A stretch of DNA of 64,000 nucleotides from Antedon mediterranea (lineage: Eukaryota; Animalia; Echinodermata): contig NC_092675.1 in assembly GCF_964355755.1 (NCBI RefSeq), positions 5,761,812 through 5,825,811 of the forward strand, given 5' to 3'. The position numbers and the translations under genes are program-made. How positions within the stretch are numbered: position 1 is the stretch's first letter; the number at the start of each line of letters is the position of its first letter. The notes beneath the pieces were generated by a model. It was given only the letters and a program-made list of their open reading frames with translations. It was not told the origin of the DNA and searched no databases. Shown piece by piece: positions 10,271-44,381 of the stretch.

Positions 10271-10283
10271 TTTTTCTGTATTA

Positions 10284-13550: not shown

Positions 13551-13584
<34 letters not shown>

Positions 13585-17475: not shown

Positions 17476-20400
17476 TTAAAATTTAATTTGAATGGCTTCA
17501 TGATAGCTATAATAAATTGGAATTACTTCAGCCTGTACTGAATCAAGACCTTTGCTATAAACATGATCAATCAATGTATTGTTTTCAGTGGTGGAACATG
17601 TAACATGTTGTCGGTATTCATTCTCTGACATTAAATTATTCACTCTGGAAGATTGTTTGAAAAGATTTTCGTTAAAATCACCCATTACAATACATTTTGT
17701 ACTCACTTTTTGTAACTCTTCCAAATAGTTTCTCAAATTTTGACAGAATTGATTAATATCATAGCTTGGGGGTCGATAAATTACTGACACGGAAACTGAA
17801 ATTGGACTTGTTATTAAAAATGAAACTGCTTCTATATCATAATTAGGTATGTTTAATCTGCTTGAAAACTTGTTTTTGGTATACACTGCAACGCCGCCAT
17901 GAGCCTGATTTTTCATTTTGGAACTCAGATCATTTCTATTAGAATACGAATCATACCTTGTTTGGTGATACAATTTATACGGCTCAATATTTACTTCAAA
18001 AACATCGTCATCTTTATTCAACCACGTTTCAGTCAGACATATGATACTAGAATTCATAAACAAATCATTGCACTGAAGATCAGCAAAATGCTGTTTAAGT
18101 CCTTGAATGTTATGTAACATTATTGAAAATTTAGAATCCGAATCATGACCTTGTTTTTCACATTGTACATATGAATCCATATTATTTAAGCATTTCTTTA
18201 TGTTTGGATCACAATAAATCAGATTAGGATTAAGATGTTCAATAGTAAGTCCAGATATTGAAGTAACACGACTGAGGGCTACGTATGCTTGTCCAGGTGC
18301 AAAGGTACTGTTAAGGCAAACTACTGCTTCATTCATTGTCAATCCTTGGACTTTATGAACTGTGCATGCATATGCTAATTTGAGAGGAAATTGTTTTCGA
18401 CTATATTTATTCCCCATAGATTCTTTAAACATTTCAATTGCCTGAACACCGATGCTATTATTATCAAACTTTACTTTAATAGTTACTGGTTTGGCGTTAT
18501 TATTGGGTTTGACTATTTCATAAACATGTCCCATACATCCATTCGTTAAGCCTTTTTTAACATCTACATTTTTAATCAACATCACTCTGGCATTAAGTGC
18601 AATCCACAAATAATTTAGTAAACTAGTTTGACGTGAATTCCGAGGTTTGTCACAAATTTTGCTCTGTTTCTTGGCGTTTACTACACTATCTTCTGCTTCA
18701 ATGCATACAATGTCTGTACAGGTTTTGTGCAACATTTTTTTATTCCATTCATCAACTTGTTTATTGCGTGGGTAAATATGAACAGCATCTTCACATTCTT
18801 CCCCTGTTTCACGTGATTTTAAAACAAATAAATCGTTATCAGACAAACAATCATGTTTTTCTTTTGTACGCAATTTGTTTAACAATAAAGCAAATTCTTT
18901 ATCTTCTTTTTGTCTCATGATTTGGTCTAACTGTACTTGCTTAAAGTTATCTAACCACAGTGAGCTTTCCAATGTGTCTTTATATAACGAACTGCCCATC
19001 ACTGGGGGTAACTGATAAAAATCACCAACAGCAATTACTGAAATGTTACCAAATGGACTATCGTTGCGTACTTGTTTTATTTGCCTTAATCTTCCGTGGA
19101 TATACCAAAGTAACCTTTGATTTACCATTGATATTTCATCTATAATAACAATTTGCAACTGACACAACTGATTACGAAGTGCACTTATTTTTTCTTCTCC
19201 AAGTGGTTGATACGGAAGTGAAATATTAATCGGGATAGACAAAGCGCTATGAATTGTTTGGCCTTTAATATTATATGCTGCGATTCCTGTAGGAGCTAAT
19301 TTCAATATTGACAAATCATCGGGATTTTCCATAATTTTTCCAAGAATACGTGTCGCTTCATTATAAATACAGTTTACCAAATGACTTTTTCCTGTACCAG
19401 CGCCACCAGTTATGAAAGTGTAAAATGCTTCAGGTTTTTTACCATTAGCTTTGTCTAAACACCATTGTCTTGTCTTATAAAATATATGTTGTTGTTTTTC
19501 ATTTAAAGATCGAATCATTTTGTTCAATTCTGGTCTTGGAATATTAGATGAATTAGACTCTACTTTAGATGTATGATTTTTTTGAATTCCAAAATCTGGA
19601 ATGAAAAATTCATCTTCTTCATCATCAACCTCTACATTTGGCTTTGGGTTGTCTAACCTTTCTTTTTCGCTTTCTGGACATAATAAACTCCATGCATCTT
19701 CTTGTGGTCCAAATTTTGATAAACATTCCTGTGCTTCTTCAACATCATCAGCACTTTTTTCATATTGTTCCATGTTTCCATGAACTATTGACTTTACCGT
19801 TTGTAATTGACAGTCACATAATTTCACACATCCTTCCTCATGAAATTGTTCGTACGTTTCAAAATTTGGAGGTTTTAACTGTTCATCTTTTCGAAATGGT
19901 AGAAATAACTGAAGTATACTCAAAAAATATTTCTCAGGTGCTGTATCCATTGGAAATCGAGGGTATCTTACTATAGCATTACTAGTTCGTGTTCTTTTTT
20001 GGATGAATCCCAACTGTTTTTTTAACTGAAATACATTATTTTTTTGTTTGTTTCCTTTCATTTCTGATGAACTCAATATTCTATATTCCGAACAAAATTT
20101 TGCAAGGCACATTTTATTAAATTCAGAACTATTAGGTCGAGCTTTATATTTGTCGATCTTATTTGGCAACCATGCACTTACATCATCATCTTCTTTGTTT
20201 TTAATTACACTTAGTGGTAAACTCATTCTGACAGGATTAGGTCCTACTGGGATAAATTCAACTTTCCTTGAACATTCTTTTAATCTTAAACTACAAACAC
20301 GATAAATACTTTCTTGTGCAGACACTTCTCGATTATTCATATAAACATTACCAAGTTTTCGCAAACTTTGCCTAGCATCTTCATTGCCTTCTTTTACTTC

Positions 20401-23400
20401 TGATGCTGCATGATTTAACAGTAAACCCATTTCACGTTCAGATTTTGACATATATCCTATAACGTAAATTATACATGCATATACATTTGTAATATATTGA
20501 ATATCCATATTAGCATTCCATGCTCTCAATAAGGAAGGATTATATTGATTTACCCACACATCTTGAGGGTTTCTCTTTATAACTATTTTTTCCTCAGTAG
20601 CTACACAATTATTTGCTTTCTCAAATGCACTCTGTGTAATACCTAAACTTTGGAAAAGTTCTATTGCATTTTTATATGTTTCTTCATTAGTCACAGCATC
20701 TTTTACTGAGGTTAACAGCTCCATTGCTTGTTTATTGTCATCATTATCATCATTGTCTTTATCCACAATTGTAGGTCTCATAACAAATGTATTTCCAGAA
20801 GGTTGTCTGGGAAAGTTAAATCTGCAATTTGTTCCCTTTTTTTTACATGATTTAGAATGTCTTTTACTGTGAATTTGCACACTTTTAACAATTTCATTCA
20901 GTTCACGATCTACAGTTTCACATGGCACAGCACAAGAAATATATTTATCAACAAAATTAATAACTTCATTATCTTTATCTGTACCAAAAATAGGAGCATT
21001 TTCAACCCATACTAACATATGAACATGTGGACTTCCTCTCATTTGAAATTCAATTCGGTAAAAATAATCTACGACTTTACCAATAGGCTGTGCTTCAGAC
21101 AAAATTACATTTTTCAAAAAAGTATGAAAGCGTTTATCAAACATTCTGGCAACAGTCACTGGATTTGATTTCAACAAATTACATTTATCTGCCCATTCTA
21201 ATTCTTCAATGTTTCTTTGGTCTCCAGACTGACTTAGCAATGTCGTCATTATTTCTTTCCAACGGAAATCAGCACTTGAGAATGAAAGAAAGAATGTTGG
21301 TTTTCCAATCTGTCTAACCATTGCTATTATATCTTTTTGTGTAGCTTGCCAGTACGGTGGAGTTCCACGAATTTGTTTTAGAAATTTATAACCCCTATCA
21401 GATTTTAAAATCTCCTGAATTTTGGTAACATTTTTTAAATCGGATACAGTAACTTTGCTAAAATCATCTTTTTTACTTGACCCTTTTCGCAATGCAATGG
21501 AAATACTTGATAAAATTTGTTGAAGTTCATATAAAGATTGAGCATAAAATATGAATTCTGTATTTTGTGCAAACCTGTTATCTATATGCATTAATCTATT
21601 GTGAAAATAACGTCCAAGTGTTATTTTAACATCTCTCGTATCATGGAATGTTGGTTGTCCTGTTGGAAATAACACTGGAAATGATTTTGCTTCATTGCTT
21701 TTATTACTTAACAATGCAATAGGACTATTATTTTCACATGGTGCACAACAAATTATGTCATTAAAATATTCATCAACCAAATTCTGTCGCCTGTCAACAG
21801 GTTGAAGACTTGTATCAAAGGTAGCACCACATAATCGGTCTTCTATTTCTTCTTCTTTTTCTTCTTCTTCATTGTTTTCATTTTCATTAGTAGTTTCCCT
21901 TTCGATGTTATCTTCAGATAAATAATTGTGCCATTCTTCATTAATAGCTATATCAAAATAGCACTTGTTATGATCTTGTAAATATTTAAGAGCTTGAATA
22001 ACATTGGCAGTGTTAACAAATTTATATTTGTAATAACCTTTGTAAGACAACTTTCGCTTCAATTTTACGGATATTAATTGATCATCAACCTGTGGTCTAG
22101 GCAGCATTTTAACAGTTTCAATAGTATTTGAAGGTACACATACAACAGGTCCATGTACTCCATGCTGTCCACCTTTAGGTAAATTCATTAATTTCATAAA
22201 AGGAATGTTTAATCCAATTAAATGCTGCTCTAAATTATTTAAACACCTGAGCTCAGGAGGAATATCGTGTAGTTGTAAATTGTTTGAATTGGCTTCTGCA
22301 GGAACTTTCCCGTTTAACATTTTTCTGTGGCATGTGAAACAAATCCATAAACGACATCTTGGTGATTCGACAAATTGACAAGGTTTATTACATTCATTAT
22401 TGCAAAGATGCAAATACTTTTCATTTATACAAGCCTTATTTTTGTATTTAGCTTTGATGCACTTCATAACTTGATCTTTGAATAACAATTTAAAGCATAC
22501 ACAACAAACATATTCAGGACCACGAGAAACTGTTCTCCTGAAGTTTTCTAAAACAATCTCAAAATTAGTGTTTTCTGTTTTGATTTTTTCCCGATTCTTC
22601 ATGTTTTTATTCATGATTTTGTTTCGGAACCCTTCATCACCATGATACTTTTCTGTAAATCTTTGCTTACACTTTTGCTTACACCTTTGACGAAATTTTA
22701 AATTACCTCGATATTTCTCAGCCAATTTTTGTTTACAGTTTTGTCTAAATTTCAAATTACTCCGATACTTCTCTGCCAATTTGTCTTTACAGTTTTGTCT
22801 AAATTTCAAATTACTCCGATACTTTTCTACCAATTTCTGCTTACAGTTTTGTCTAAATTTAAAATTACTCCGATACTTCTCTGCCAATTTCTGCTTACAG
22901 TTTTGTCGAAATTTCAAATTATTCCGATACTTCTCTGCCAATTTCTGCTTACAGTTTTGACGAAATTTCAAATTACTTCGATACTTCTCTGCCAATTTTT
23001 GGGTAACATTTTCTCTGAATTTGGAATTATTACAATACTTCTCTGCTAATTTTTGCTTCAAGTTTTGTTGAAATGTTAGATCATTGTGATACTTTTCCTT
23101 ATTTCTTTGATTATTGTTTTGTCTAGTTTTATGTCTAAATATTGTATCATTGTTATATCTATTTTTCTTTGTTTCTTTCAAATTTTGCCTATACTTTTCA
23201 TTAAATTTATAATTTAACAAATTGGTGGCTTTTTTGGTTGTTCGGTAATGCAAATTAATGTTGTAGTTATGTCTAGCTTTATTTCGTACCTTACCATTAT
23301 ATTCAGGATCACATCTATACATTTTGTATTGTCTTTTTCTGTTATCTTTACTTTTTTGGAATTTATAATCATCATCATCACAATATTTCATTTTTTGTGC

Positions 23401-26400
23401 CTCTTTTACTTTACGTTTCTTTTTTTCTCTGTATACAGGATCACTTTGATATTTGTTTCCGATTTCATTTGTTTCTTCTGAATTATTTTTTTCTTCTCTT
23501 TCCCGTTTAATTCTCTGTCGATTCTTAGCACTTTCTTTTCTAATTCTATAAGATTGTTTTCGTTTTCTGCTCAATATTTTTACTCTGCTTTCTGAACAAG
23601 GTCTTTCAACAGTTTTACTCTGTTTGTGTTTTGGTTCTATATCTTCAAATGTGTCACAAGTTTCATTTCGCGTTTGCTTTCGTTTCTTTGTTGTAGAATT
23701 CTTTACAGAAAAATTCGCCTCTGTATTTGACAGTTTATTGTGGGATGTCACGTTCATATCAACTTTTCCTGTTGTTTCCTGAACATTATTTTGACTAACA
23801 TTGACAGATTCCACTACATTAAAATGCACATTCATGGTGTACAAAATATATATACCATTGTCAGTTGTAACATCATCTATTCTTCCCGGCTTTTTAGCAG
23901 AAAACAATTGCCACGTCAAAAGTTGATCATTAAATGAATAAATATCTGTATTAAGCAAGTTTGCCATTGCACTTATTTCAGTATTGGATGCCCACGTTCC
24001 ATTATCCATTACTCTTTTTTTTAACACATATTCCTTAACTGATCTATACTCGTGACTAAATGTATTAATAAACAAGTCACCAGTCTCCAATAAATGATTA
24101 GTAATTGCTCTTCTTAAAAGAAAATGATTATCTTCAGTACCAGAAATAATGTATGAAATTGCACGATAAAAACAATTACCATCACCTGTAATATTCGTAA
24201 TTTGAAGAGGATGTCCAATCTGACTAGCTCTGTTAATACCACAATTCATATCGGTATGTTCACAATGAATGCCTACTTCATTACACATGTTTTTCTTTTG
24301 TGCTTCTGAGATAGGAATAAATTTAAAATTCTCGTCAGGTCTTCTTTCATACTGAACATTAACAATTTCAATATCACTATCACTTTGCCATCCATTACTT
24401 GATGAGACATGACCTTCTTTATTATGTTTTTTGCCTTTAACGTTAGAATCAATATTCTTGTCTGGTAATCCTGTACTACATTTATATTGATAAGACGTAC
24501 TAGGTTCATCAACATCGACATTTCCAAAGTTGCTTTGTTCACAATTATCATCTAGCACAGAAGCGGAACATAACATCATAGACTTATTTTCAATATTTAC
24601 ACCAGTCAGTTCAAACTCGGTGTCATGTAAATTACAGTTCATTGACCTTGCTAATCTTATACAATAGTCGTACACACCTTGCCAAGATGTACTGTAAAGT
24701 AAAATACTCTTTCCATGCTCACTAACACGACCAAATCGATCTCTTGCATGTGGATCAAATATAAGGAAACCATTTACACGTTTAATAATAGAAAATGTGC
24801 TTCTGTTGAAATTCATAAAAAATGCATCATGTTGGTGTAATTCTTGTTCAAGAGCTTGGTTTAATGACAAGGCTCCATACTCAGCCATAAATTCGAGATT
24901 CCCATCTATTATGCCAAAAACTGATTCTTTGGGAGATATTACAAATGTGTTATCCAAGATATCCAATTCTTTCGGCAGTTCAGAAATCATTAAAAGGTCC
25001 TCGTGCATAGTGGAATCTTTCTGAATGTAACGGTACAACTCGTTTCCAAGAGTCAATATTGTATCAAGGTCTTTGGTGTAAAAATCATTTCCATTCCTCT
25101 TTGTAGAATAAAGAATAGCTACAAGACTATTTGCAACACACTGTTTACCACTTGCAAAGCCAAATCTATAATTCCCTTGATTAAAATTACCCTGTGCTAC
25201 AGTTATATTTTCATTACTATTATATACTTGTAATTCATTTATTGATTGTGTTTTCTGCCTTTTTCGTGTATTTTTTTGTTTTGGTACATCATCGATTATC
25301 AATTCTTCCGAAAAATTATTTTTTGTTAAAATTTCAATGTCCACATCGATAGTATGTTGGTCACATTTAGGTTTAGTATGGGACCTAATTTTTTTAGTCA
25401 TTGCTTTTTTGCATCCGTCATCAATTATGAATACTTCATTTTCCTCAAATTCACAACTTGCACATGTTTGATTTTTATGATCTGTACCATTACTATCAAT
25501 TATTCTACTTCTGTCATTTATTTTGCTATTATTTTGTGTTTTCGCATCTTCAGTCGCTGTGTTGTCGTTTTCTACAGTACATTCTATTTTAAAATCCTCG
25601 TCAGTTTTCGTTTCAGAATTGTCATTATTACCCATGTTCTTTATATCTTTGCCAAACCGTTCCATAGTATCGCAATCATTCTTTAAATTCACATTACCTT
25701 GTGCTTTTTTGTTATCAATCTTCTTAGTTTTGACAAAACGACCTTTGTTATTTCGTAAACGTTTCGAACCACCACCTGATTGTTGTTGTATTCCGTTTGT
25801 TACTTTTGTATTTTTCAAAACATCACACATAGGCCTACCACTGTCGTCAAATATTGTTTGTGAATTTCCCAATACATTCGTTTTAGAATTTTCTTTGTTG
25901 TATTCTCTGTAAGTATTTGTATTCATATTCCATTCCATTTTGTTATTATTTCGTCTTTCATAGAAATCTTTTACACCTTTGCCAATATATTTTACACCTG
26001 GTTCTAAACTTATACCATTTATAACGGGCTTTCTCCTTTTCTTATTTCCTCTATTTTTACATCTTTTTTTTTTGTTGTCGGTTCTTTTCTTTGATCTTAC
26101 TCTCATCCAATCACTACCAAGTAAATCTTCACTTCCTGTTTGTTGACATTTTAATTTGGCATTATTACAACGTTTTTCTTTATTTTTCGTTAATTCTGGA
26201 AAGTCTGCAGTGACAGATTCATCAGGTTCTAGAATCGTATATCTATTGAAATGACAGGGAATACCTATTTCACCCAACATGTTATTAACAAAATTACTAT
26301 TCCCACACATTGAACAAATCCAAATTACCCTGGAATTACATAGTTTGTCTTCAAAAACATCTCTTACACATTTCACATGAAAATATTGACTACAACAGTC

Positions 26401-26817
26401 ACATGTTATGCAATTGTCGTCTACTTTCACTTCAATATTACAGAAATCGCATGTATCATCAAACTCTGAAGTGACCTCTGTACCATAAGATAATATGTTT
26501 ATGATATCATCAATTATTCCTTTAAATTCAGTTGTATCTTTCATAAATTCACAATTGACATTACCTGTATCATCATTTCTGTCGTCTTTGACATTCTCAG
26601 TTGAACAGCATTCATCAAGTAGGTCCAAGATGTCATTAACAACTATTTTAAATTCTGCTGTCTTATCCATAACTCCATTATTAACATTACCAGTTGTATT
26701 GACAAAAATCTGCTTTTTACTTGTAACTTCTTTATTCACATTCTTACACAAATAAATTATCATTGTAAAGATAATCAACAAAAAGATACCAACTAATGTT
26801 ATGAATTCCATATCCAT
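17476..26817 (-). CDS. Helentron Rep/helicase/endonuclease polyprotein, 3113 aa
   Basis: PHD finger (CDFC..CDCC..H..C..C..C, ~26300-26450); peptidase C76-like (QGNFNQG..GKQCVANS..FDPH, ~24740-25200); OTU (GDGNCFYRAIS..W..HF, ~23810-24190); Zn-binding CCVC region; HUH Rep (PTFFLSFS, RIEFQMRGSPHVH, YVIGYMSK); PIF1 helicase (GGAGTGKS, IIDEISM, GDFYQLPPV, QFPLKLAYACTVHKVQG); APE endonuclease (HNIQGL, LTETWL, YRPP, GDFN, IDH). Confidence 0.95.
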   Translation of the reverse strand: MDMEFITLVGIFLLIIFTMIIYLCKNVNKEVTSKKQIFVNTTGNVNNGVMDKTAEFKIVVNDILDLLDECCSTENVKDDRNDDTGNVNCEFMKDTTEFKGIIDDIINILSYGTEVTSEFDDTCDFCNIEVKVDDNCITCDCCSQYFHVKCVRDVFEDKLCNSRVIWICSMCGNSNFVNNMLGEIGIPCHFNRYTILEPDESVTADFPELTKNKEKRCNNAKLKCQQTGSEDLLGSDWMRVRSKKRTDNKKKRCKNRGNKKRRKPVINGISLEPGVKYIGKGVKDFYERRNNNKMEWNMNTNTYREYNKENSKTNVLGNSQTIFDDSGRPMCDVLKNTKVTNGIQQQSGGGSKRLRNNKGRFVKTKKIDNKKAQGNVNLKNDCDTMERFGKDIKNMGNNDNSETKTDEDFKIECTVENDNTATEDAKTQNNSKINDRSRIIDSNGTDHKNQTCASCEFEENEVFIIDDGCKKAMTKKIRSHTKPKCDQHTIDVDIEILTKNNFSEELIIDDVPKQKNTRKRQKTQSINELQVYNSNENITVAQGNFNQGNYRFGFASGKQCVANSLVAILYSTKRNGNDFYTKDLDTILTLGNELYRYIQKDSTMHEDLLMISELPKELDILDNTFVISPKESVFGIIDGNLEFMAEYGALSLNQALEQELHQHDAFFMNFNRSTFSIIKRVNGFLIFDPHARDRFGRVSEHGKSILLYSTSWQGVYDYCIRLARSMNCNLHDTEFELTGVNIENKSMMLCSASVLDDNCEQSNFGNVDVDEPSTSYQYKCSTGLPDKNIDSNVKGKKHNKEGHVSSSNGWQSDSDIEIVNVQYERRPDENFKFIPISEAQKKNMCNEVGIHCEHTDMNCGINRASQIGHPLQITNITGDGNCFYRAISYIISGTEDNHFLLRRAITNHLLETGDLFINTFSHEYRSVKEYVLKKRVMDNGTWASNTEISAMANLLNTDIYSFNDQLLTWQLFSAKKPGRIDDVTTDNGIYILYTMNVHFNVVESVNVSQNNVQETTGKVDMNVTSHNKLSNTEANFSVKNSTTKKRKQTRNETCDTFEDIEPKHKQSKTVERPCSESRVKILSRKRKQSYRIRKESAKNRQRIKREREEKNNSEETNEIGNKYQSDPVYREKKKRKVKEAQKMKYCDDDDYKFQKSKDNRKRQYKMYRCDPEYNGKVRNKARHNYNINLHYRTTKKATNLLNYKFNEKYRQNLKETKKNRYNNDTIFRHKTRQNNNQRNKEKYHNDLTFQQNLKQKLAEKYCNNSKFRENVTQKLAEKYRSNLKFRQNCKQKLAEKYRNNLKFRQNCKQKLAEKYRSNFKFRQNCKQKLVEKYRSNLKFRQNCKDKLAEKYRSNLKFRQNCKQKLAEKYRGNLKFRQRCKQKCKQRFTEKYHGDEGFRNKIMNKNMKNREKIKTENTNFEIVLENFRRTVSRGPEYVCCVCFKLLFKDQVMKCIKAKYKNKACINEKYLHLCNNECNKPCQFVESPRCRLWICFTCHRKMLNGKVPAEANSNNLQLHDIPPELRCLNNLEQHLIGLNIPFMKLMNLPKGGQHGVHGPVVCVPSNTIETVKMLPRPQVDDQLISVKLKRKLSYKGYYKYKFVNTANVIQALKYLQDHNKCYFDIAINEEWHNYLSEDNIERETTNENENNEEEEKEEEIEDRLCGATFDTSLQPVDRRQNLVDEYFNDIICCAPCENNSPIALLSNKSNEAKSFPVLFPTGQPTFHDTRDVKITLGRYFHNRLMHIDNRFAQNTEFIFYAQSLYELQQILSSISIALRKGSSKKDDFSKVTVSDLKNVTKIQEILKSDRGYKFLKQIRGTPPYWQATQKDIIAMVRQIGKPTFFLSFSSADFRWKEIMTTLLSQSGDQRNIEELEWADKCNLLKSNPVTVARMFDKRFHTFLKNVILSEAQPIGKVVDYFYRIEFQMRGSPHVHMLVWVENAPIFGTDKDNEVINFVDKYISCAVPCETVDRELNEIVKSVQIHSKRHSKSCKKKGTNCRFNFPRQPSGNTFVMRPTIVDKDNDDNDDNKQAMELLTSVKDAVTNEETYKNAIELFQSLGITQSAFEKANNCVATEEKIVIKRNPQDVWVNQYNPSLLRAWNANMDIQYITNVYACIIYVIGYMSKSEREMGLLLNHAASEVKEGNEDARQSLRKLGNVYMNNREVSAQESIYRVCSLRLKECSRKVEFIPVGPNPVRMSLPLSVIKNKEDDDVSAWLPNKIDKYKARPNSSEFNKMCLAKFCSEYRILSSSEMKGNKQKNNVFQLKKQLGFIQKRTRTSNAIVRYPRFPMDTAPEKYFLSILQLFLPFRKDEQLKPPNFETYEQFHEEGCVKLCDCQLQTVKSIVHGNMEQYEKSADDVEEAQECLSKFGPQEDAWSLLCPESEKERLDNPKPNVEVDDEEDEFFIPDFGIQKNHTSKVESNSSNIPRPELNKMIRSLNEKQQHIFYKTRQWCLDKANGKKPEAFYTFITGGAGTGKSHLVNCIYNEATRILGKIMENPDDLSILKLAPTGIAAYNIKGQTIHSALSIPINISLPYQPLGEEKISALRNQLCQLQIVIIDEISMVNQRLLWYIHGRLRQIKQVRNDSPFGNISVIAVGDFYQLPPVMGSSLYKDTLESSLWLDNFKQVQLDQIMRQKEDKEFALLLNKLRTKEKHDCLSDNDLFVLKSRETGEECEDAVHIYPRNKQVDEWNKKMLHKTCTDIVCIEAEDSVVNAKKQSKICDKPRNSRQTSLLNYLWIALNARVMLIKNVDVKKGLTNGCMGHVYEIVKPNNNAKPVTIKVKFDNNSIGVQAIEMFKESMGNKYSRKQFPLKLAYACTVHKVQGLTMNEAVVCLNSTFAPGQAYVALSRVTSISGLTIEHLNPNLIYCDPNIKKCLNNMDSYVQCEKQGHDSDSKFSIMLHNIQGLKQHFADLQCNDLFMNSSIICLTETWLNKDDDVFEVNIEPYKLYHQTRYDSYSNRNDLSSKMKNQAHGGVAVYTKNKFSSRLNIPNYDIEAVSFLITSPISVSVSVIYRPPSYDINQFCQNLRNYLEELQKVSTKCIVMGDFNENLFKQSSRVNNLMSENEYRQHVTCSTTENNTLIDHVYSKGLDSVQAEVIPIYYSYHEAIQIKF
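22690..23060 (-). repeat. Coding 54-bp minisatellite (18-aa QKLAEKYRSNLKFRQNCK, about 7 copies)
   Basis: Directly visible in DNA and translation. Confidence 0.9.
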
Positions 26818-27375
26818 TATTCAAAATTTGTATAAGAAACAAACCTACAAATTTCTTCAAATTAATAAACTTTGTATTCTGCAATTCCAATGAATATTAC
26901 AATTAAGTTCTTTTTATCAATTCAAGAAATCCTTGCTAAAACAAAATAAATTATTAAAATTCCAAAAACAATTCAATTATATATTGTCTTTTGTTTCTAT
27001 GATTTTTAATTTTTGTCCTAATTTTTTTTCTTTTAATATATTTTTTTTTTGTCTGCTTTTTTTTCAATAGTTCAATTATACAATTTCACTGAATAAAAAA
27101 ATTAGCTTCTGCTTAATATTGGCTTAATGAAATACTATTTAATATTATTATAAATATTATTTTAAACTTCTCTTTAATACTTGGTTGTGCTAAATAGTTT
27201 CAGATTCTAATTTTTATTCTTTTTACAATTCTACTTAATAACAGATTCAAATAAAAGTGATCTTTAAATCTTCTTTAATTAATTCTTTTGTAATAAACTC
27301 TGTTTAATATTTATTTCTTTATAATAAGCTTCTGTTTTATTCTTCAAACTTTTGTTTGTATAATCAAACTTTAAC

Positions 27376-27740
27376 TTTACACTTTTGCTTTTGCAAAAAT
27401 GGTTTTGTAATAAACTTTTGTTTATTAGTTGTTTCCTTGTGATTAACTTCTGTTATCTTCAAGGTTTTACACTTTTGCTTTTGCAAAAATGGTTTTGTAA
27501 TAAACTTTTGTTTATTGGTTGTTTCCTTGTGATTAACTTCTGTTATCTTCAAGGTTTGACACTTTTGCTTTTGCAAAAATGGTTTTGTAATAAACTTTTG
27601 TTTATTAGTTGTTTCCTTGTGATTAACTTTTGTTATCTTCAAGGTTTTACACTTTTGCTTTTGCAAAAATGGTTTGTAATAAACTTTTGTTTATTAGTTT
27701 TTTCCTTGTGATAAACTTCTGTTTACTTCAAGGTTTTACT
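27376..27740. repeat. 90-bp tandem repeat, about 4 copies, upstream of the ORF
   Basis: ACACTTTTGCTTTTGCAAAAATGGTTTTGTAATAAAC... period 90; the minus strand reads as a 30-aa repeat. Confidence 0.9.
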
Positions 27741-27898
27741 GAATGTTTCAAAGATACTTTTAAAAAATGTTTAAAAAGAAATTGTGCATAAATATTAAAA
27801 TTCGGTAACCCCTCGTAGAAACTCTCTTTGGAGAGTGGATCTTTTTCTAAAGACCCGGATCTCTTCTGAGATCCAGTGGGTTTATATAAGACAGTCAC

Positions 27899-27930
27899 CT
27901 ACAATAAAAGAAAAAAAAAAGAGTTAGTTA
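27899..27930 (-). promoter_or_regulatory. Candidate 3' splice acceptor for the exon leading to the transposase ORF
   Basis: Minus strand AACTAAC (branch-like) TCTTTTTTTTTCTTTTATTGTAG|GTGACTG. Confidence 0.55.
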
Positions 27931-28479
27931 TTAATTTTAAGATACACTGTACAGTACTAAGAATTACAGTCAAACAATTATAAATTGAATCAGTAGATAA
28001 ATCAGTGTTTTTACAAATACCTAAATAATAATATACACATCCCCCCTGTGGAATGTAACATGATCTATTGGGCCTAGCAAAACAAATTAGGACCAACTCA
28101 TTACTAAATTCAGGATAGACCCATTTTATAAAATTGCAAATTTATGTCTGGAGAAACTGACCACCACATTTATGTTAAAAAGGATGATTGTCCCAAATTT
28201 TGAAGTAAATTGTGATAATATATTTGTGACTTTGGTTTATACAATATAAATAAATCACTATAGAAGATATTTTGACCTAAAAATATGTCAAAACTTCATT
28301 ACATGGAATGTGTCGGAAACAAATTCTTTCATAACAATTTCACCTTCAAAATTAATCTGAAAATAGGTTTAATTATTCAATGTTCTAATAAAATAGAATT
28401 TTATACACAAACATATTTGGTCACTCAGTATAGTCAATTTACAAACAACACATGTTTATCAATTATTGGAGGGCATAAA

Positions 28480-31400
28480 GTAAGGAAAATATGTTTTTTC
28501 CGTTTTACAGATAATTTTCTAATACTCACAGCTGTAACTGGCACTGTATATTTTCTGTACAACTACAATCTAAAAAATAAAAGGAAAATCATTAATAATG
28601 GCAATAAACAACATTAACACTTTTTCAAAATCAACATGCTTCTTAATCAATGTCTGAAAAATTAAGAAATTTTCTCAAAATGAATTTGGGTATTAGACAG
28701 CTGGTTAGGGCCTACATGTTGTCTCAATGCTAATTTCATTTAATATTTTATTCACAAACCATAAAATCTGAATTATGTAAATGTTTCATAATAGAACATG
28801 CCTACAAAATAACAGGCAACGGTTCACAAAGTAAAGAAAATATGTTTTATCCGTTTAACAGATAATCTACTAATACTCACAGCTGTAGCTGACACTGTAT
28901 ATGTTCTACAATCTAAAAAAAAAAACAAGGAAAAACATTAATAATTGGCAATAAACAACATTAACACTTTTTCCAAATCAACATGCTTTTTAATCAATGT
29001 CTGAAAAATTAAGAAATTCCTCAAAATGACTTTGGGTATGAGACAGCTGGTTAGGCCTACATGTTGTCTTAATGCTAATTTCATTTAATATTTTATTCAC
29101 AAACCATAAAATCTGAATGATGTAAATGTTACATAATAGAAAATGCCTACAAAATAACAGGCAACGGTTCACAAAGTAAAGAAAATATGTTTTCTCCGTT
29201 TAACAGATAATCTACTAATACTCACAGCTGTAGCTGACACTGTATATTTTCTACAATCTAAAAAAACAAAACAAGGAAAAACATCAATAATTGGCAATAA
29301 ACAACATTAACACTTTTTCCAAATCAACATGCTTCTTAATCGAGGTCTGAAAAATTAAGAAATTTCCTTAAAATGACTTTAGGTATGGGACGGCTGGTTA
29401 GGGCCTACATGTTGTCTCAATGCTAGTTTAATTTAATATTTTATTCACAAACCATAAAATCTGAATTATGTAAATGTTTCATAATAGAAAATGCCTACAA
29501 AATAACAGGCAACTGTTCACAAAGTAAGGAAAATATGTTTTCTCCGTTTAACAGATAACCTACTAATACTCACAGCTGTAGCTAACACTGTATATTTTCT
29601 ACAATCTAAAAACAACAAGGAAAAACATTGATAATGGCAAAAAAACAACATTAACCCTTTTGTTAAATCAACATGCTTCTTAATCAATGTCTGAAAAATT
29701 AAGAAATTTCCTCAAAATAACTTTGGGTATGGGCCAGATAATTGGGGTCTACATGTTGTCTCAAAACTACTTTCATTTAATATCTTATTCACAAACCATA
29801 AAATCTGAATTATGTAAATGTTTCATAATATAAAATGCCTACAAAATAACAGGCAACAGTTCACAAAGTAAGGAAAATATGTTTTCTCCGTTTAACAGAT
29901 AATCTACTAATACTCACAGCTGTAGCTGAAACTGTTAATTTTCTACAATCTAAAAAAAACAAGGAAAAACATTAATAATGGCAATAAACAACATTAACAC
30001 TTTTTCCAAATCAACATGCTTCTTAATCAATGTCTGAAAAATTAGGAAATTTCCTCAAAATGACTTTGGGTATGGGCCGGCTGATTGCGGCCTACATGTT
30101 GTCTCAATGGTAATTTCATTTAATTGTTTGATCACAAACAATAAAATCTGAATTACGTAAATGTTTCATAATAGAAAATGTCTACAAAATAACAGGCAAC
30201 AGTTCACAAAGTAAGGAAAATATGTTTTCTCCGTTTAACAGATAATCTACTGATACTCACAGCTATAGCTGAAACTGTATATTTTCTACAATCTAAAAAA
30301 AAACAAGGAAAAACATTGATAATGGCAATAAACAACATTATCACTTTTTCCAAATCAACAAGCTTCTTAATCAATGTCTGAAAAATTAAGAAATTTCCTC
30401 AAAATGACTTTGGGTATGGGTCGGCTAATTGGGGCCTACATGTTGTCTCAATGCTAATTTCATTTAATATTTTATTCACAAACCATAAAATCTGAATGAT
30501 GTAAATGTTTCATAATAGAAAATGCCTACAAAATAACAGGCAACAGTTCACAAAGTAAGGAAAATATTTTTTCTCTGTTTAGCAGATAATCTACTAATAC
30601 TCACAGCTGTAGCTGACACTGTATATTTTCTACAATCTAAAAAAAAAACAAGGAAAAACATTAATAATTGGCAATAAACAACATTAACACTTTTTCCAAA
30701 TCAACATGCTTCTTAATCGAGGTCTGAAAAATTTAGAAATTCCTCAAAATGACTTTGGGTATGAGACAGCTGGTTAGGGCCTACATGTTTTCTCAATGCT
30801 AATTTCATTTAATATTTTATTCACAAACCATAAAATCTGAATGCTGTAAATGTTTCATAATAGAAAATGCCTACAAAATAACAGGCAACTGTTCACAAAG
30901 TAAGGAAAATATGTTTTCTCCGTTTAACAGATAATCTACTAATACTCACAGCTATAGCTAACACTGTATATTTTCTATAATCTAAAAACAACAAGAAAAA
31001 ACATTGATAATGGCAATAAACAACATTAACCCTTTTGCTAAATCAACATGCTTCTAATCAATGTCTGAAAAATTAAGAAATTTTCTCAAAATAACTTTGG
31101 GTATGGGCCGGCTGATTGGGGTCTACATGTTGTCTCAATACTAATTAAATTTAATATCTTATTCACAAACCATAAAATCTGAATTATGTAAATGTTTCAT
31201 AATATAAAATGCCTACAAAATAACAGGCAACAGTTCACAAAGTAAGGAAAATATGTTTTCTCCGTTTAACAGATAATCTACTAATACTCACAGCTGTAGC
31301 TGAAACTGTTAATTTTCTACAATCTAAAAAAAACAAGAAAAACATTGATAATGGCAATAAACAACATTAACACTTTTTCCAAATCAACATGCTTCTTAAT

Positions 31401-32446
31401 CGAGGTCTGAAAAATTAAGAAATTCCTCAAAATGACTTTGGGTATGAGACAGCTGGTTACGGCCTACATGTTGTCTCAATGCTAATTTCATTTATTATTT
31501 TATTCACAAACCATAAAATCTGAATGCTGTAAATGTTTCATAATAGAAAATGCCTACAAAATAACAGGCAACTGTTCACAAAGTAAGAAAAATATGTTTT
31601 CTCAATTTAACAGATAATCTACTAATACTCACAGCTGTAGCTAACACTGTATATTTTCTACAATCTAAAAACAACAAGGAAAACATTGATAATGGCAATA
31701 AACAACATTAACCCTTTTTCCAAATCAACATGCTTCTTAATTAATGTCTGAAAAATTAGGAAATTTCCTCAAAATGACTTTGGGTATGGGCCGGCTGATT
31801 AGGGCAAGCAACAGTTCACAAAGTAAGGAAAATATGTTTTCTCCATTTAACAGATAATCTACTAATACTCACAGCTGTAGCTGAAACTGTTAATTTTCTA
31901 CAATCTAAAAAAAACAAGGAAAAACATTGATAATGGCGATAAACAACATTAACACTTTTTCCAAATCAACAAGCTTCTTAATCAATGTCTGAAAAATTAA
32001 GAAATTTCCTCAAAATAACTTTGGGTATGGGCCGGCTGATTGGGGTCTACATGTTGTCTCAATACTACGTTCATTTAATATCTTATTCACAAACCATAAA
32101 ATCTGAATTATTTAAATGTTTCATAATATAAAATGCCTACAAAATAACAGGCAACAGTTCACAAAGCAAGGAAAATATGTTTTCTCCGTTTAACAAATAA
32201 TCTACTGATACTCACAGCTGTAGCTGAAACTGTATATTTTCTACAATCTAAAAAAAACAAGGAAAAACATTGATAATGGTAATAAACAACATTAACACTT
32301 TTTCCAAATCACCAAGCTTCTTAATCAATGTCTGAAAAATTAAGAAATTTCCTCAAAATAACTTATTTTATTCACAAACAATAAAATCTGAATTATGTAA
32401 ATGTTTCATAATAGAAAATGCCTACAAAATAACAGGCAACAGTTCA
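28480..32446. repeat. ~345-bp satellite-like tandem array, 12 units, inside Helentron copy 1
   Basis: ACTCACAGCT recurs at ~28524, 28875, 29220, 29568, 29912, 30255, 30599, 30944, 31286, 31627, 31867 (short unit) and 32210. Confidence 0.95.
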
Positions 32447-33100
32447 CTCCCAATCATGAAACCATTAATCATCTCTACAAACTATTTATTTAATATACAC
32501 TACTTACTATATTCTAGAGATACTAAAGTAGAAACAATTGTGTATCTCTTCCAACAGCTACAAGACAAAAATATATTATTATTATAAATATCAATACAAA
32601 TTGTGATCAAAACATCCACAATATTTGTAACAATGACAGGTGCGAAAGGGAACTGCGCTGACCTACGTCACTACTACTAGGACTACTGGAGTAAGCCTAG
32701 ACAACATGCTATTGTAAGAAGAACGAGTCATTGTTTCTTCTCTTTAAGAATTTATACAACTAAAAATTAAGCTAGAGTTAATATAATATAAGCCAGGTGC
32801 AAAAGGGAACTAGCGCCGTTTAGTCCTACTAAAAACAGCAAGTATTCTTGTACAGGCTAGGCCTAGGTACACTATGAATGTAGCAGACATATTTGTTCGT
32901 ATTTACCGGGACCGTATTTAACATACACATGGCCATACACGATTGTCGTGCTGCTACGAAAGCCATCGGGCTGAAAAACGTCACGACGTTTGCCGGCCGT
33001 CTCTGAAAGTCTGACATCCTTCCGTATATCTATAGTAGGCTAGGGTATCGTTAGTAAGTAGCAATTACAAAACAACTACAAATCAAACAATCCACATAAT

Positions 33101-33110
33101 TTCTTACCTA
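33101..33110 (-). promoter_or_regulatory. Candidate first-exon splice donor of the transposase transcript
   Basis: Minus strand TAG|GTAAGA at 33108/33107, about 300 bp inside the inferred element end. Confidence 0.4.
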
Positions 33111-33403
33111 TTTCTTATAGTATATCAATTCTCAACAAACTTGAGTTTGTTATTTATTTATTTAATCGTTGAAGTTCGACGATATAAAATGGTATTTGTA
33201 ACAATATTATCAGAGAGCGACTCTTAAAAACCAACATGGAGTTTACCAACGACATACCACAACACAACACGTTGTCGAATTTTCTCGAAATTCGGTTCAC
33301 CTACAGTATGGCATGCAATCCTCGCCAAAATTACCAATATTTAACGAATAACGAAAATTAGTTTTCACGTCAGACCTATTATATGTATTCTACGTGTATA
33401 TTA

Positions 33404-36400
33404 TTGGTTATCCGCACTTGGCGGATAACCTCTTGTTATTGTCAGGATCTTTTTTTTTTTTTTTTTTCGATATTCTTCTTTCTTTCCACGAATTTTGTTC
33501 GCAGCGTATCTCTAATTCTAGCCAACATAAGATTCTATAACTTTGTCATAAGATTGACCTGTAGCTCTAGATGTGCAAGAAACTTTTTTTTTCGAATTTC
33601 GAGTCGCGCAGCGTAAGTTACGCGCGATTTTATGAATTTCATTGATTGATCATAGAATAAAAACTAAAAATTGTTTTATATTGAAACTTTGTGAAAATTT
33701 AAGTGATATCATGCGCAAACTTTCTATGGATTAAAAATGGCAGGTTTCACAAAAAGTTACGTGCGCACGCGCGTTTGAAATTTCAAAATGCGAAAAATAA
33801 ATTTCTAATCAACTTTCTACGCGTTTCATGTCATTTTGAGCATTTCAAAAATTCCCACGCGTGCGCAATTTTTTTACGCGCGCGTGCACACGTAGCGCAA
33901 AAACATCCTTTTTTTGCTTGATTTTTGTTTTTTCAGCCTTTTCTAGTAAATTTATCAATTTTAAATCAATTTCGACTTAAAATCACGTCATACGAGCACG
34001 TAGAATTAAACAATTTGCGCCCATTTTTGATGAAAAATTTCAAAAATTCGTGAAAATTATGCCTTTCTTTAAAAAAGCATAGATTCTAAACTCCGTGGTG
34101 AACATTTTTAAAATTTCAGATTCTGGAAGTAAATGAGTTGCAGATATCAAATCATGCATTGACATGGCTAACCGGACATTTTGACGTCATCGTATGGCCA
34201 CTCGAATATAAAATATAGGATTTTTGTCACTTTCTCATAGCTCATCACATTTAATAGAGCGCATCTGCACTTATCCGTATTCCATTTCCCCCCATTTTGT
34301 TATATTGTCTAGGCCAATCAATTATCTTTCGCACAATCTACCATTTTTTAAATTGTGATGACGTCATCATGTCCAAAAGCGTCAATAACTTGGGTCCCTT
34401 ATTTTCACCTATTCTGCACTGTATGTAGTACGTATACAGAATACAGTGTATACCGTATATACTTTGACGTGACGCAAAATAGAGAGCGCACTAACATTTT
34501 TTCAATGGCATAATCGTTTTTCTGCGCGCAATATTCCAACGTATGACGTGCACGTGGCGTTTGCGCTGCGGATAACCTAACTCGTCCGTAGTGACGAGTT
34601 CAAATCTAGTATTTATTTCTTTCTTTCCACACTTCTCTCCCATTTTTTGTGGGCAGCGTATCTCTAATTCTAGCCAACATAAGATTGTATAACTTTGTCA
34701 TAAGATTGCCCTGTAGCTGTAGATGTGCAAGAAACTTTTTTTTTCAAATTTCGAGTCGCGCAGCGTAAGTTACGCGCGATTTTACGAATTTCAATGATTG
34801 ATCATAGATTAAAAACTAAAATTCATTTTGTATTGAAACTTGGTGAACATTTAAGTCATATAATGCGCAAACTTTCTATGGACTAAAAATGGCATGTTTT
34901 GGAAAAAGTTACGCGCGCACGCGCGTTTAAAACTTCAAAATGCGAAAAATCAATATCTGATCAACTTTCTACGCGTTTCATGTCATTTTGAGCATTTGAA
35001 AAATTCCCACGCTTGCGCAATTTTTTTACGCGCACGTGCGCACGTAGCGCAAAAACATCATTTTTTTGCTTGATTTTTGTTTTTCCTGTCTTTTTTAGAA
35101 AATTTACCAACTTTCAAACAATTTCGACTTAAAATCACGTCATACGAGCACGTAGAATTAAACAATTTACGCACATTTTTGATGAAAAAGTTCAAAAATT
35201 AGTCAAAATTATGCCTTTTTTTAAACAGTCATAAATTCTAAACTACGTGGTGAACTTTTTTGTAATTATATATTCTGGTAGTAGATGAGTTGCAGATATC
35301 AAATCATGCATCAATATGGCTAACCGGACATTGTGACGTCATCATATGGCCACTCGAATATAAAATATAGGATTTTTGTCTCTTTCCTCGTAGCTCGTCA
35401 CATTTAATATAGCGCATCTCCACTTATTTGTATTCCATTTCCCCCCATTTTTTTATGTTGTCTAGGTCTATCAATTATCTTTCGCACGATTCACCATTTT
35501 AAAAATTGTGATAACGTCATCATGTTCAAAAGCGTCAATAACTTTGGTCACTTATTTTCACCTATTCTGCACTGTATGTAGTACGTATACAGTATATAGT
35601 GTATACCGTATATACTCAGACGTGACGAAAAATAAAGAGCACGCTGAAATTGTTTCAATTACTTAATCGTTTTTCTGCGCGCAATATTTTAACGTACGAC
35701 GTGCACGTGGCCTTTGCGCTGCGGATAACCTAACTCGTCCGTAGTGACGAGTTCAAATCTAGTATTTATTTGTTTCCTTCCACCCTTCTCCCCCATTTTT
35801 TGTGCGCAGCGTATCTCTAATTCTGGCCAACATATGATTGTATAACTTTGTCAAAAGATTGCCCTGTAGCTGTAGATGTGCAAGAAACTCTTTTTTTCAA
35901 ATTTCGAGTCGCGCAGCGTAAGTTACGCGCGATTTTATGAATTTCAATGATTGATCATAGAATAAAAACTAAAAGTCGTTTTGTATTGAAACTTGGTGAA
36001 CATTTAAGTCATATAATGCGCAAACTTTCTATGGATTAAAAATGGCATGTTTCATAAAAAGTTACGCGCGCACGCGTATTTAAAATTTCAAAATGCGAAA
36101 AATCAATATCTAATCAACTTTCTACGCGTTTCATGTCATTTTGAGCATTTCAAAAATTCCCACGCGTGCGCAATTGTTTTACGCGCACGTGCGCACGTAG
36201 CGCAAAAACATCATTTTTTCTATTGATTTTTGTTTTTCTTTTCTTTTTTAGAAAATTTACCAGCTTTCAAACAATTTCGACTTAAAATCACGTCATACGA
36301 GCACGTAGAATTAAACAATTTACGCGCATTTTTAATGAAAAAGTTCAAAAATTTGTCAAAATTATGTCTTTTTTTAAACAGTCATAGATTCTAAACTACG

Positions 36401-36915
36401 TGGTGAACTTTTTTATAATTACATATTATGGTAGTAGATGAGTTGCAGATATCAAATAATGCATCAATATGGCTAACCGGACATTCTGACGTCATCGTAT
36501 GGCCACTCGAATATAAAATATAGGATTTTTGTCTCTTTCCTCGTAGCTCGTCACATTTAATATAGCGCATCTCCACTTATTTGTATTCCATTTCCCCCCA
36601 TTTTTTTATGTTGTCTAGGTCTATCAATTACCTTTCGCACGATTTACCATTTTCAAAATTGTAATGACGTCATCATGTTCAAAAGCGTCAATAACTTTGG
36701 TCACTTATTTTCACCTATTCTGCACTGTATGTAGTACGTATACAGTATATAGCGTATACCGTATATACTCAGACGTGACGAAAAATAGAGAGCACACTGA
36801 AATTGTTTCAATGACTTAATCGTTTTTCTGCGCGCAATATTTTAATGTATGACGTGCACGTGGCCTTTGCGCTGCGGATAACCTAACTCGTCCGTAGTGA
36901 CGAGTTCAAATCTAG
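33404..36915 (+). mobile_element. HINE (33404-34609) followed by two headless HINE bodies (34610-35762, 35763-36915)
   Basis: One GGTTATCCGC head and three tails GCGGATAACCTAACTCGTCCGTAGTGACGAGTTCAAATCTAG. Confidence 0.9.
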
Positions 36916-36974
36916 TTAGACGTTGCGTTTTCGCGGATAACCTAACTCGTCCGCAGTGACGAGTTCAAATCTAG
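36916..36974 (+). mobile_element. Orphan Helentron 3' terminus
   Basis: TTAGACGTTGCGTTTTCGCGGATAACCTAACTCGTCCGCAGTGACGAGTTCAAATCTAG with no body. Confidence 0.85.
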
Positions 36975-39900
36975 TTGGTTATCCGCACTTGGCGGATAAC
37001 CCCTTGTTATTGTCAGGATCTTTTTTTTTTTTTTTTTTTTTTTTCTATGTTATTCTTCTTTCTTTCCCCGAATTTTGTTCGCAGCACATCTCTATCTTGT
37101 GGCCAACATAAGATTGTATAACTTTGTCATAAGGTTGACCTATAGCTGTAGATGTGCAGCCAAGCTTTTGGACGATTTTGGAGTTGCGCAGCGTAAGTTA
37201 CGCGCGATTTTATGAATTTCAATGATTGATCATAGAATAAAAACTAAAAGTTGTTTTGTATTGAAACTTTGTGAAAATTTAAGTGAGATCATGCGCAAAC
37301 TTTCTATGGATTAAAAATGGCATGTTTCACAAAAAGTTACGCGCGCACGCGCGTTTGAAATTTCAAAATGCGAAAAATCAATTTCTAATCAACTTTCTAT
37401 GCGTTTCATGTCATTTTGAGCATTTCAAAAATTCCCACACGTGCGCAATTTTTTTACGCGCGCGTGCGCACGTAGCGCAAAAACATCTTTTTTTTGCTTG
37501 ATTTTTGTTTTTTCAGCCTTTTCTAGTACATTTACCAATTTTCAATCAATTTCGACTTAAAATCACGTCATACGAGCACGTAGAATTGAACAATTTGCGC
37601 GCGTTTTTGAAGAAAAAGTTCAAAAATTCGTCAAAATTATGCCTTTTTTAAAACAGTCATAGATTCTAAACTCCGAGGTGAAAATATTTAAAATTTCAGA
37701 TTCTGGAAGTAGATGAGTTGTTTTTCTCGAATCATGCATTGATATGGCTAACCAGACATTGTGACGTCATCGTATGGCCACCCGAATATAAAATATAGGA
37801 TTTTTTTCTCTTTCGTCATAGCTCGTCAATTTAATAGAGCGCATCTCTACTTATCCTTATTCCATTTCACTCAATTTTTTTATATTGTCTAGATCAATCA
37901 ATTACCTTTCGCATGATCCACCATTTTAAAAATTGTGATGACGTCATCATATTCAAATGCGTCAATAACTTTGGTCACTTATTTTCACCTATTCTGCACT
38001 GTATGTAGTACGTATACAGTATATAGTGTTATACCGTATATACTTAGACGCGACGCAACATAGAGAGCGCACTAACATTTTTCAATGCCATAATCGTTTT
38101 ATTTTTTTGCGCGCACTATTCTAACGTATGACGTGCACGTGGCTTTTGCACTGCGGATAACCTAACTCGTCCGTAGTGACGAGTTCAAATCTAGTTTTTT
38201 TTTTCTTTATTCTTCTTTCTTTCCACGAATTTTGTTCGCAGCGTATCTCTAATTCTAGCCAACATATGATTCTATATTCTTTGTTATAAGATTGGCCTGT
38301 AGATGTAGATGTGCATGACATTTTTTTTTTCGAATTTCGAGTCGCGCAGCGTAAGTTACGCGCGATTTTATGAATTTCAATGATTGATCTTTGAATAAAA
38401 ACTAAAAGTCATTTTGTATTGCGCGATTTTATGAATTTCAATGATTGATCTTTGAATAAAAACTAAAAGTCATTTTGTATTGAAACTTGGTGAAAATTTA
38501 AGTCATAATATTCTCCAACTTTCTATGGATTAAAAATTGCATGTTTGACAGAAAATTATGCGCGCCCGCGCGTTTAAAATTTCAAAATGCGTAAAATCAA
38601 TTTCTAATCAACTTTCTACGCGTTTCAGGTCATTTTGAGCATTTCAAAAATTCCCACGCGTGCGCAATTTTTTTACGCGCGCGTGCGCATTTAGCGCAAA
38701 AACATATTTTTTTTGCTTAATTTTTGTTTTTTCAGCCTTTTCTAGTAAATTTACCAATTTTCAATGGATTTTGACTTAAAATCACGTCATACGAGCACGT
38801 AGAATTGAACAATTTGCGCGCGTTTTTGATGAAAAGTTCAAAAATTTGTGAAAATTATGCCTTTTTTTAAAAAGTCATAGATTCTAAACTACGTGGTGAA
38901 CTTTTTTTAAATTACATATTGTGGAAGTAGATGAGTTGTAGATATCGAATCATGCATCAATATAGCTAACTGTACATTGTGACGTCATCGTATGGCCACT
39001 CAAATATAAAATATAGGATTTTTTTCTCTTTCGTATAGCTCATCACATTTAATAGAGCGCATCTCCACTTATCCGTATTCCATTGCCCTCCATTTCTTTA
39101 TATTGTCTAAGTCAATCAATTATCTTTCGCATGATTCATTAGTTTAAAAATTGTGATGACGTCATCATGTCCAAAAGCGTCAATAACTTTGGTCACTAAC
39201 TTTCACCTATTCTGCACTGTATGTAGTACGTATAGAGTATAATATAGTGTATACCGTATATACTTAGACGTGACGCAAAATAGAGAGAAAACTAAAATTG
39301 TTTCAATGGCATCATCGTTTATCTGCGCGCAATATTCTAACGTACGACGTGCACGTGGATTTTGCGCTGCGGATAACCTAACTCGTCCGTAGTGACGAGT
39401 TCAAATCTAGTTGGTTATCCGCTCTTGGCGGATAACCTCTTGTTATTGTCAGGATCTTTTTTTTTTTTTTCTATGTTATTCTTCTTTCTTTCCCAAAATT
39501 TTGTGTCACGTGTATCTCAAATTCTGATCAACATTACATCGTATAACTTTGTCAGAAGATTAACCTCTATGTGTAGAAGTGCAGGACAGCTCGTTTTTTT
39601 ACTTTAGAGTCGCGCAGCGTAAGCTACGCGCGATTTTATGAATTTCGCGTATTTAACATAGACTAAAAAGCAAAAGTCATTTTGTAATGACACTTGGTGA
39701 ACATTTAAGTCATATCAAGGGCAAACTTTCTATGGATTAAAAATGGCATGTTTGACATAAAGTTACGCGCGCACGCGCGTTTAAAATTTCAAATTGCGAA
39801 AAATTCATTTCTAATCAACTTTCTACGCGTTTCAGGTCATTTTGAGCATTTCAAAAATTCCCAGGCGTGCGCATATTTTTTACGCGCGCGTGCGCACGTA

Positions 39901-44348: not shown

Positions 44349-44381
<33 letters not shown>

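Follow-up and report, generated by a model that had tools for sequence, protein, structure and literature searches.

The DNA analysed here, called the window below, is a stretch of 64,000 nucleotides from the crinoid Antedon mediterranea (contig NC_092675.1, positions 5,761,812 to 5,825,811). It contains a transposable element that is classed by its protein as a Helentron and whose Rep/Helicase (RepHel) open reading frame (ORF) is read from the minus strand (17476..26817). Upstream of this frame lies a tandem exon-intron array (28477..32447, minus strand) of units of about 344 bp, 12 of which carry a micro-exon. In contigs of one likely RNA run these micro-exons are spliced to each other and to the exon that begins at 27898.

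Splicing of the micro-exons

It is conspicuous that every unit, read on the minus strand, has the same build, i.e. a T-rich tract that ends in TTTAG, an exon and an AGCT/GTGAGT donor (12 of 12 units; pairwise identity 88-97%). The micro-exons are located on the minus strand at 32216..32247 (exon 1, the reference for the exon-to-exon junction contigs), 31873..31904, 31633..31664, 31292..31323, 30950..30981, 30605..30636, 30261..30292, 29918..29949, 29574..29605, 29226..29257, 28881..28912 and 28530..28569 (exon 12). Their donors are at 32215, 31872, 31632, 31291, 30949, 30604, 30260, 29917, 29573, 29225, 28880 and 28529. The introns between micro-exons are 208-316 nt long, the one before exon 3 being shortened to 208 nt. 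Behind exon 12 follows the last leader intron (27899..28529, minus strand; 631 nt, GT..AG, 11 ATGs), which has a strong pyrimidine-tract acceptor at its end. The acceptor AG occupies 27900-27899.

The preliminary description of this DNA, made from the letters alone, had proposed units of about 345 bp, each with an acceptor, a 32-nt exon and a GTGAGT donor. The signals and the short exon are indeed present in all 12 units, and ten unit spacings (341-348 bp) agree with the proposed length. The remaining spacing is 240 bp (internal deletion), the exon length is 32 nt in 11 of the 12 units and 40 nt in the last one, which has an 8-nt insertion, and the exon quoted was one of several variants. A pyrimidine tract with YAG, followed by 15-80 nt and GTRAGT, was found in 37 of 2000 dinucleotide shuffles of one unit (1.85%; 4.9% with GTRAG as the donor). 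In the whole window such donors occur 14 times on the minus strand, 12 of them in the array, and once on the plus strand. As all 12 units go back to a single event, the motif by itself counts as no more than modest evidence.

The splicing itself was investigated in contigs of sequencing runs. Five runs contain the stretch and none is recorded as RNA; run X1 was taken as RNA by guess. Contigs of X1-X4 were aligned to 27745-28810 and those of X1 only to 32165-33400, i.e. to the two flanks of the array with one exon each, and the loose ends considered are those listed in the two alignments, all but 50 in the first and six of 15 in the second. In two X1 contigs the match ends exactly behind 27898 and continues with 19 letters whose reverse complement is an exon-12-type end. 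These letters include one that is unique to exon 12 among the 12 exons, and they contain one difference, which is also seen at 28541 in contigs of X2-X4. Of these two contigs one represents a variant, with 11 other letters, and a similar variant is present in X2; it is likely that two sequence types splice alike at 27898. At the other flank, the loose end of two X1 contigs at 32216 continues with 12 letters of the canonical exon start, and in two X1 contigs 9 letters of the exon end stand directly before the exon start at 32247. The window DNA does not contain the junction words; even the stretch most similar to the exon-exon word has mismatches at 6 of 21 letters. Chance is unlikely because the three loose-end sites fall exactly on the predicted AG/GT borders, and with these junction contigs the splicing of the array is confirmed. 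In other words, the micro-exons are joined to one another and to the acceptor at 27899 as had been suggested, and the picture in the X1 contigs is not that of an array always removed as a single intron.

The contigs also contain sequence that is not spliced. X3 record 17 (27745-28193) and X4 record 25 (27745-28037) cross 27898 without a break. Depth arithmetic at this site gives about 81 for the spliced path (an unlisted junction contig) and 35.1 for the unspliced path, contig depth being a poor measure. The units are collapsed in short-read contigs, from which the order and number of exons per transcript are not readable. Three joints listed in each alignment have no GT..AG ends and were taken to reflect DNA differences from copy to copy. 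The units also share two other conserved acceptor-like sites, one present in 12 units and one in 11, and none of the listed loose ends shows that they are used.

The preliminary description had put a candidate first donor at 33107, which the contigs do not support so far. The candidate site (33102..33107, minus strand, AG/GTAAGA) is present in the sequence, and no use of it is seen in X1: no joint or listed loose end falls there, and X1 record 8 (33089-33334, 246 letters, depth 27.9) crosses 33107 unbroken. The same picture would result from a first exon of very small size or from a clipped branch. Just before the array there is also a candidate 50-nt exon (32508..32557, minus strand) with a tract-TAG acceptor, a GTAAGT donor at 32507 and no ATG, whose use is not seen in the X1 contigs either. 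X1 has no cover at 33383-33400, which proves nothing. We note that the depth of X1 in the bin 33089-33130 is 90.3, as compared to about 27 on either side and to 43.9 expected from the listed records; this was not used as evidence, and a region of about 34 bp round the candidate donor that is common to divergent copies is one possible cause.

Another observation concerns the exon after the array. It starts with GTGACT (27900-27893, minus strand), one letter off the micro-exon donor GTGAGT, and the join with exon 12 recreates a donor-like site from which re-splicing is possible in principle.

AUG content of the leader and conservation of the units

The joined micro-exons contain no ATG and have stops in all three frames, and on this ground we regard them as non-coding. 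Coding micro-exons typically have a length that is a multiple of 3 and keep the frame open. A coding role was considered and rejected, given the lengths of 32 and 40 nt and the stops in all frames of the joined exons. Only 5 of the 96 possible single changes would create an AUG in the exon, so the fact that the exons are AUG-free is not evidence of selection.

The long last leader exon (26818..27898, minus strand) has 1081 nt, of which 27898-27745 is covered by X1 and the rest is taken to be exonic from its AUG depletion. It contains a single ATG, as compared to shuffle means of 19.6 and 12.6, and none of 1000 mononucleotide and none of 1000 dinucleotide shuffles had so few. Each of the five remaining permutations of A, T and G is found 9-26 times. 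The ATG at 27789 begins the sole upstream ORF of the modelled spliced leader (27760..27789, minus strand, 9 codons). The same exon holds a 90-bp tandem repeat of 4 copies (27376..27739, minus strand), again with no ATG. When the 12 exons and the last exon are joined, the modelled leader is 1473 nt long with one AUG, while the unspliced span has 82. The introns have 4-11 ATGs each, which is an ordinary density (17-19 per kb in the introns tested). The AUG depletion of 27898-26818 fits its reading as a leader. In the scanning model of initiation upstream AUGs block ribosomes from the downstream ORF, so a retained intron would block RepHel translation. This argument applies to any leader intron and leaves the number twelve unexplained.

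The conservation of the splice signals among the units was compared with the rest of the unit. All 12 signal columns (acceptor -3 to -1, donor -3 to +6) are invariant, as compared to 222 of the 303 other intron columns, which gives a naive P of 0.024. The invariance of GT and AG alone has P=0.29, and the exon body, with 23 of 32 conserved columns, is no more conserved than the intron (222 of 303). When the 12-column pattern is slid round the unit, it is fully invariant at 14 of 344 offsets (about 4%), and the 8-column AG+GTGAGT pattern is invariant at 45 of 344. The excess conservation of the splice signals is borderline. The comparison of splice dinucleotides with the rest of the unit, which the preliminary description had proposed as a check, comes out weak.

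A small RNA in each unit was considered as well. In tandem host arrays each intron carries a structured or boxed small RNA. The region 26500-33500 had 0 matches in Rfam at E values up to 1, the folding of the unit is no better than that of shuffles (z -0.67), and a scan of one intron for a C or D box found none. A tandem host array for intronic small nucleolar RNA or microRNA finds no support in these results.

Origin and role of the array

We consider it rather probable that the array arose when a leader exon already present was tandemly amplified together with the flanking intron sequence, and that splicing hides the expansion and gates translation. The transcript would continue from the leader to the ATG at 26817, and a tandem duplication of the Helentron type would have copied a 344-bp piece with one whole exon. 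Each added unit would contribute one more exon and intron and no AUG. A retained intron would place 4-11 AUGs before the ORF and block the scanning ribosomes, and transposase would be made only from fully spliced RNA. The number of units would be mostly tolerated drift, with the splice signals kept by weak selection.

Amplification of a leader exon is favoured because the element forms tandem repeats throughout and because of a pattern in a distant HLE2 relative, L001; it would be tolerated because splicing removes the new AUGs. The further arrays in the element have units of 90 bp (4 copies), 54 bp (7 copies) and 386 bp (2.8 copies). Internal arrays are described as common in Helitrons and Helentrons (PMC12628747). 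A protein scan found three relatives among 77 candidates, with the Rep domain in L001 only. No tandem repeat upstream of the main frame was found in any of the three relatives, L001 being covered over 2.4 kb. In L001 a pyrimidine tract with CAG stands directly before the first ATG of the RepHel frame (2370-2420). An acceptor-like tract without an upstream array fits a spliced leader that is older than the array, and it is a hint that spliced leaders may be general in the HLE2 group. A pattern scan of JGI metagenome contigs gave 0 matches, and among viral contigs 0 of 43 candidates were matches.

Several points weigh against the amplification of a tolerated leader exon. The junctions all come from one run, which is RNA by guess, and from contigs only, with two contigs per junction and loose ends of 9-19 letters. 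For the exon-to-exon junction X1 is the one run that was aligned there. X1 covers intron sequence in all 30 bins, which means that it contains pre-mRNA or DNA. The X2 pieces listed do not bridge 27898, a first exon upstream of the array was not found in the X1 contigs on 32165-33400, and no contig connects the leader to the ATG. On the plus strand of the leader, which served as control, ATGs are mildly depleted as well (9 vs 14-16, P 0.03-0.05). The acceptor of L001 is a sequence pattern only, the neutral origin of the array is something that we infer, and the splice signals, with their borderline conservation (14 of 344 offsets), tip the balance slightly to selection.

Selection on a spliced array is the most probable of the alternatives, even if we rate it as rather unlikely. 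Here the many short leader introns would mark the long, A-rich, intronless ORF as host-like (escape from silencing of the HUSH or PIWI-interacting RNA (piRNA) type, better export), or the number of units would tune the output. The single open frame of 9342 nt has 39.6% A on the sense strand, and repression by HUSH is described as following sense-strand A content (41% A in L1 ORF2), with introns being protective (PMC8770142). TASOR-like proteins are found in invertebrates (PMC10578480), P element transposase is gated by splicing (PMC9762592), and the 12 invariant signal columns point in the same direction (naive P about 0.02). However, GT and AG alone are not unusually conserved (P=0.29), 45 of 344 offsets match the AG+GTGAGT pattern and conservation in the exon body does not exceed that of the intron. 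In PMC8770142 the intron itself and not splicing is protective, so exons would be unneeded for that, and L001 has no such array in 2.4 kb upstream. An extended version, in which the array was amplified as a counter-defence, with at least 12 leader introns disguising the 9.3-kb A-rich ORF as a host gene and a multi-step splicing gate set by satellite copy number, convergent with the IR1 leader of Epstein-Barr virus (EBV), is likewise doubtful in our view.

The remaining alternatives question what the junctions stand for. The exons could be spliced into another RNA (non-coding, circular by back-splicing, or a minor isoform) with the ORF expressed from a later start. The collapsed exon-to-exon junctions do not separate forward splicing from back-splicing, no contig links the array to the ATG, and one contig, of background depth (27.9), runs through 33107 without a break. 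We nevertheless hold this to be improbable, as the exon-12-type end is joined forward to 27898, the AUG depletion extends from 27898 to the ORF start, the spliced path has about 81 in depth against 35.1 for the unspliced one (contig depth being a poor measure), the Rfam search of 26500-33500 (E up to 1) gave no match and the folding of the unit does not exceed that of shuffles (z -0.67). That the junctions are processed (retro-copied) DNA or assembly artefacts, with the motif a chance feature of a T-rich satellite, is very improbable. X1 is RNA by guess and covers introns, and the motif is found in 1.85-4.9% of shuffled units, but the three loose-end sites lie exactly on predicted borders, two sequence types show the 27898 junction while contigs of X3 and X4 pass the site unbroken, and a processed copy would itself require spliced RNA. 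Least credible of all is that the units serve as alternative first exons, each driven by a promoter of its own, like in the Drosophila gene hydra, which has nine tandem first exons, seven of them flanked by DINE-1 (PMC1904467). The X1 contigs do not contain a first exon upstream of the array, which would agree with such an arrangement, yet the acceptors are used and an exon end is joined before 32247, so the exons are internal. Extra transcription starts inside the array may exist.

The arrangement resembles several known systems. In architecture the nearest counterpart is the IR1 (W repeat) leader of the EBNA mRNAs of EBV, where each tandem unit gives exons that are spliced head to tail into the 5' leader. 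Skipping is rare there, and the number of repeats in transcripts is largely that of the genome (bioRxiv 10.1101/2025.04.23.648900). Head-to-tail splicing of exons from successive units is also seen in our array (X1 ends at 32216, 32247 and 27898), which by analogy would work like the IR1 leader; no homology is claimed. The W exon pairs have about 193 nt and encode the repeats of EBNA-LP, and IR1 contains the Wp promoters (same source), whereas the Antedon array has one 32-nt exon per 344 bp, without an AUG and with stops in every frame of the joined exons. The repeated protein domain of the viral case therefore has no counterpart here. The closest case of a transposase gated by splicing is the P element, where splicing of IVS3 decides on transposase production. 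In contrast to the Antedon array, a single coding-region intron is involved there and regulation by piRNA and splicing factors has been shown (PMC9762592); here there are at least 12 leader introns and the proposed gate would act via upstream AUGs. Drosophila hydra beside DINE-1 shares the tandem duplication of a 5' exon module and the Helentron-derived setting. It is a host gene with alternative first exons (PMC1904467), while the Antedon exons are internal, are joined in series inside the element and are entered through an acceptor (exon end joined at 32247).

Autonomous Helentron/HLE2 elements are the nearest kin in terms of content (PMC4067079, PMC11417382, PMC12628747). They share with the Antedon element the RepHel-endonuclease (EN) fusion in one ORF with OTU, Herpes_teg_N and DUF6570, the Rep motif-2 signature, internal tandem arrays and neighbouring HINE-like units. 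The difference is that their internal arrays are treated in these sources as satellite-like DNA, while in the Antedon element every unit holds an exon that is spliced into the transposase leader. A literature search, judged by titles and abstract starts and covering few subscription papers, gave no description of an exon-per-unit spliced array in a Helitron, and a search on crinoid repeats gave nothing on this element.

The internal arrays of Helitrons are regarded as raw material of satellite DNA. With its units transcribed and spliced into what is probably the transposase leader, at least one such satellite would be part of the element's own gene. The array offers a natural series for asking if leader introns keep a transposon ORF that is long, A-rich and intronless from being silenced in an invertebrate, and if repeat number sets transposase output. 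If selection were the true explanation, the array would be a counter-defence and a dial made from a satellite, convergent with the EBV IR1 leader. Other Helentron arrays could be cheaply screened for oriented acceptor-exon-donor modules, which are likely to be missed by gene predictors (gene model P0002 starts inside the ORF).

The element and its surroundings

The RepHel ORF runs uninterrupted on the minus strand from the ATG at 26817 to the stop at 17476 (9342 nt, 3113 amino acids). It contains a PHD-like Cys/His pattern, Herpes_teg_N, OTU, DUF6570, the Helitron Rep, a PIF1 helicase and a C-terminal EN. An AP endonuclease fused C-terminally to Rep/Helicase is a Helentron feature (PMC4067079), and PF14214, PF05970 and PF03372 are found in one ORF in both copies of the element. 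Rep motif 2, YFYRIEFQMRGSPHVH at residue 1918, matches the signature F/Y-x-R before (V/I)ExQxRG-S-PHxH, which is described as diagnostic of Helentrons (PMC4067079). DUF6570 is regarded as an HLE2 marker, and Herpes_teg_N and EN are enriched in HLE2 subgroup b (PMC11417382); all three are present. The closest proteins are those of Antedon mediterranea itself (7 of 11 protein matches, 56-100% identity).

A second copy of the element extends from 54777 to beyond 64000, with 94.9% identity over the ORF and the leader beyond the window. Helentrons insert between T and T; the two copies diverge at a T run near 15325/52443. A Helentron is also expected to have subterminal inverted repeats and a terminal hairpin at its own ends. 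Between 33700-33000 and 15700-14700 there are no inverted repeats of at least 9 bp, and these end zones share with the 3' zone of copy 2 only three AT-rich 9-11-mers. Terminal structure and reversed ORFs are subjects on which PMC5148889 bears.

The element is flanked by tandem 1.2-kb HINE-like units. These non-coding units are arranged head to tail (33401-51581 and about 7030-14890). One end has a hairpin and an inverted repeat, the opposite end an inverted repeat that is palindromic. The hairpin is 5' relative to the RepHel ORF, like in the HLE2-reverse layout of PMC11417382. The units may be non-autonomous partners of the element or its termini, and could supply its ends.

A further tandem repeat, of 386-398 bp, lies 3' of the stop codon (16214-17336 and 53431-54462, minus strand) and resembles an exon-intron module. 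A tract-CCAG acceptor is present in three units of copy 1, a CTG/GTGAGT donor in one of three units of copy 1 and in two units of copy 2, and a second GTGAG follows 31 nt beyond the donor. Judging from these motifs, the repeat may be a second spliced array, partly decayed, in the 3' untranslated region.

The RepHel protein has features of its own. At the N-terminus (26817-26750, minus strand) there is a hydrophobic stretch, MDMEFITLVGIFLLIIFTMIIYLC, that resembles a signal peptide or a membrane anchor, which is odd for a nuclear transposase. It is also found in subfamilies P0003-P0007, of which P0005-P0007 are 56-64% identical. Within the frame there is a 54-bp coding repeat (18 amino acids, rich in K and R) of about 7 copies (22673-23131 and 59957-60376) that varies between copies and subfamilies. 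Gene models P0001 and P0002 omit parts of what is a single open frame in the window; in P0001 the Herpes_teg_N-OTU block is duplicated, and the end frame of P0002 corresponds to window positions 1717-2091. Finally, a large imperfect inverted repeat (702-4486, about 702-2367 vs 4486-2558) consists in part of 154-155-bp tandem units, with short broken open frames inside, and is likely another element.

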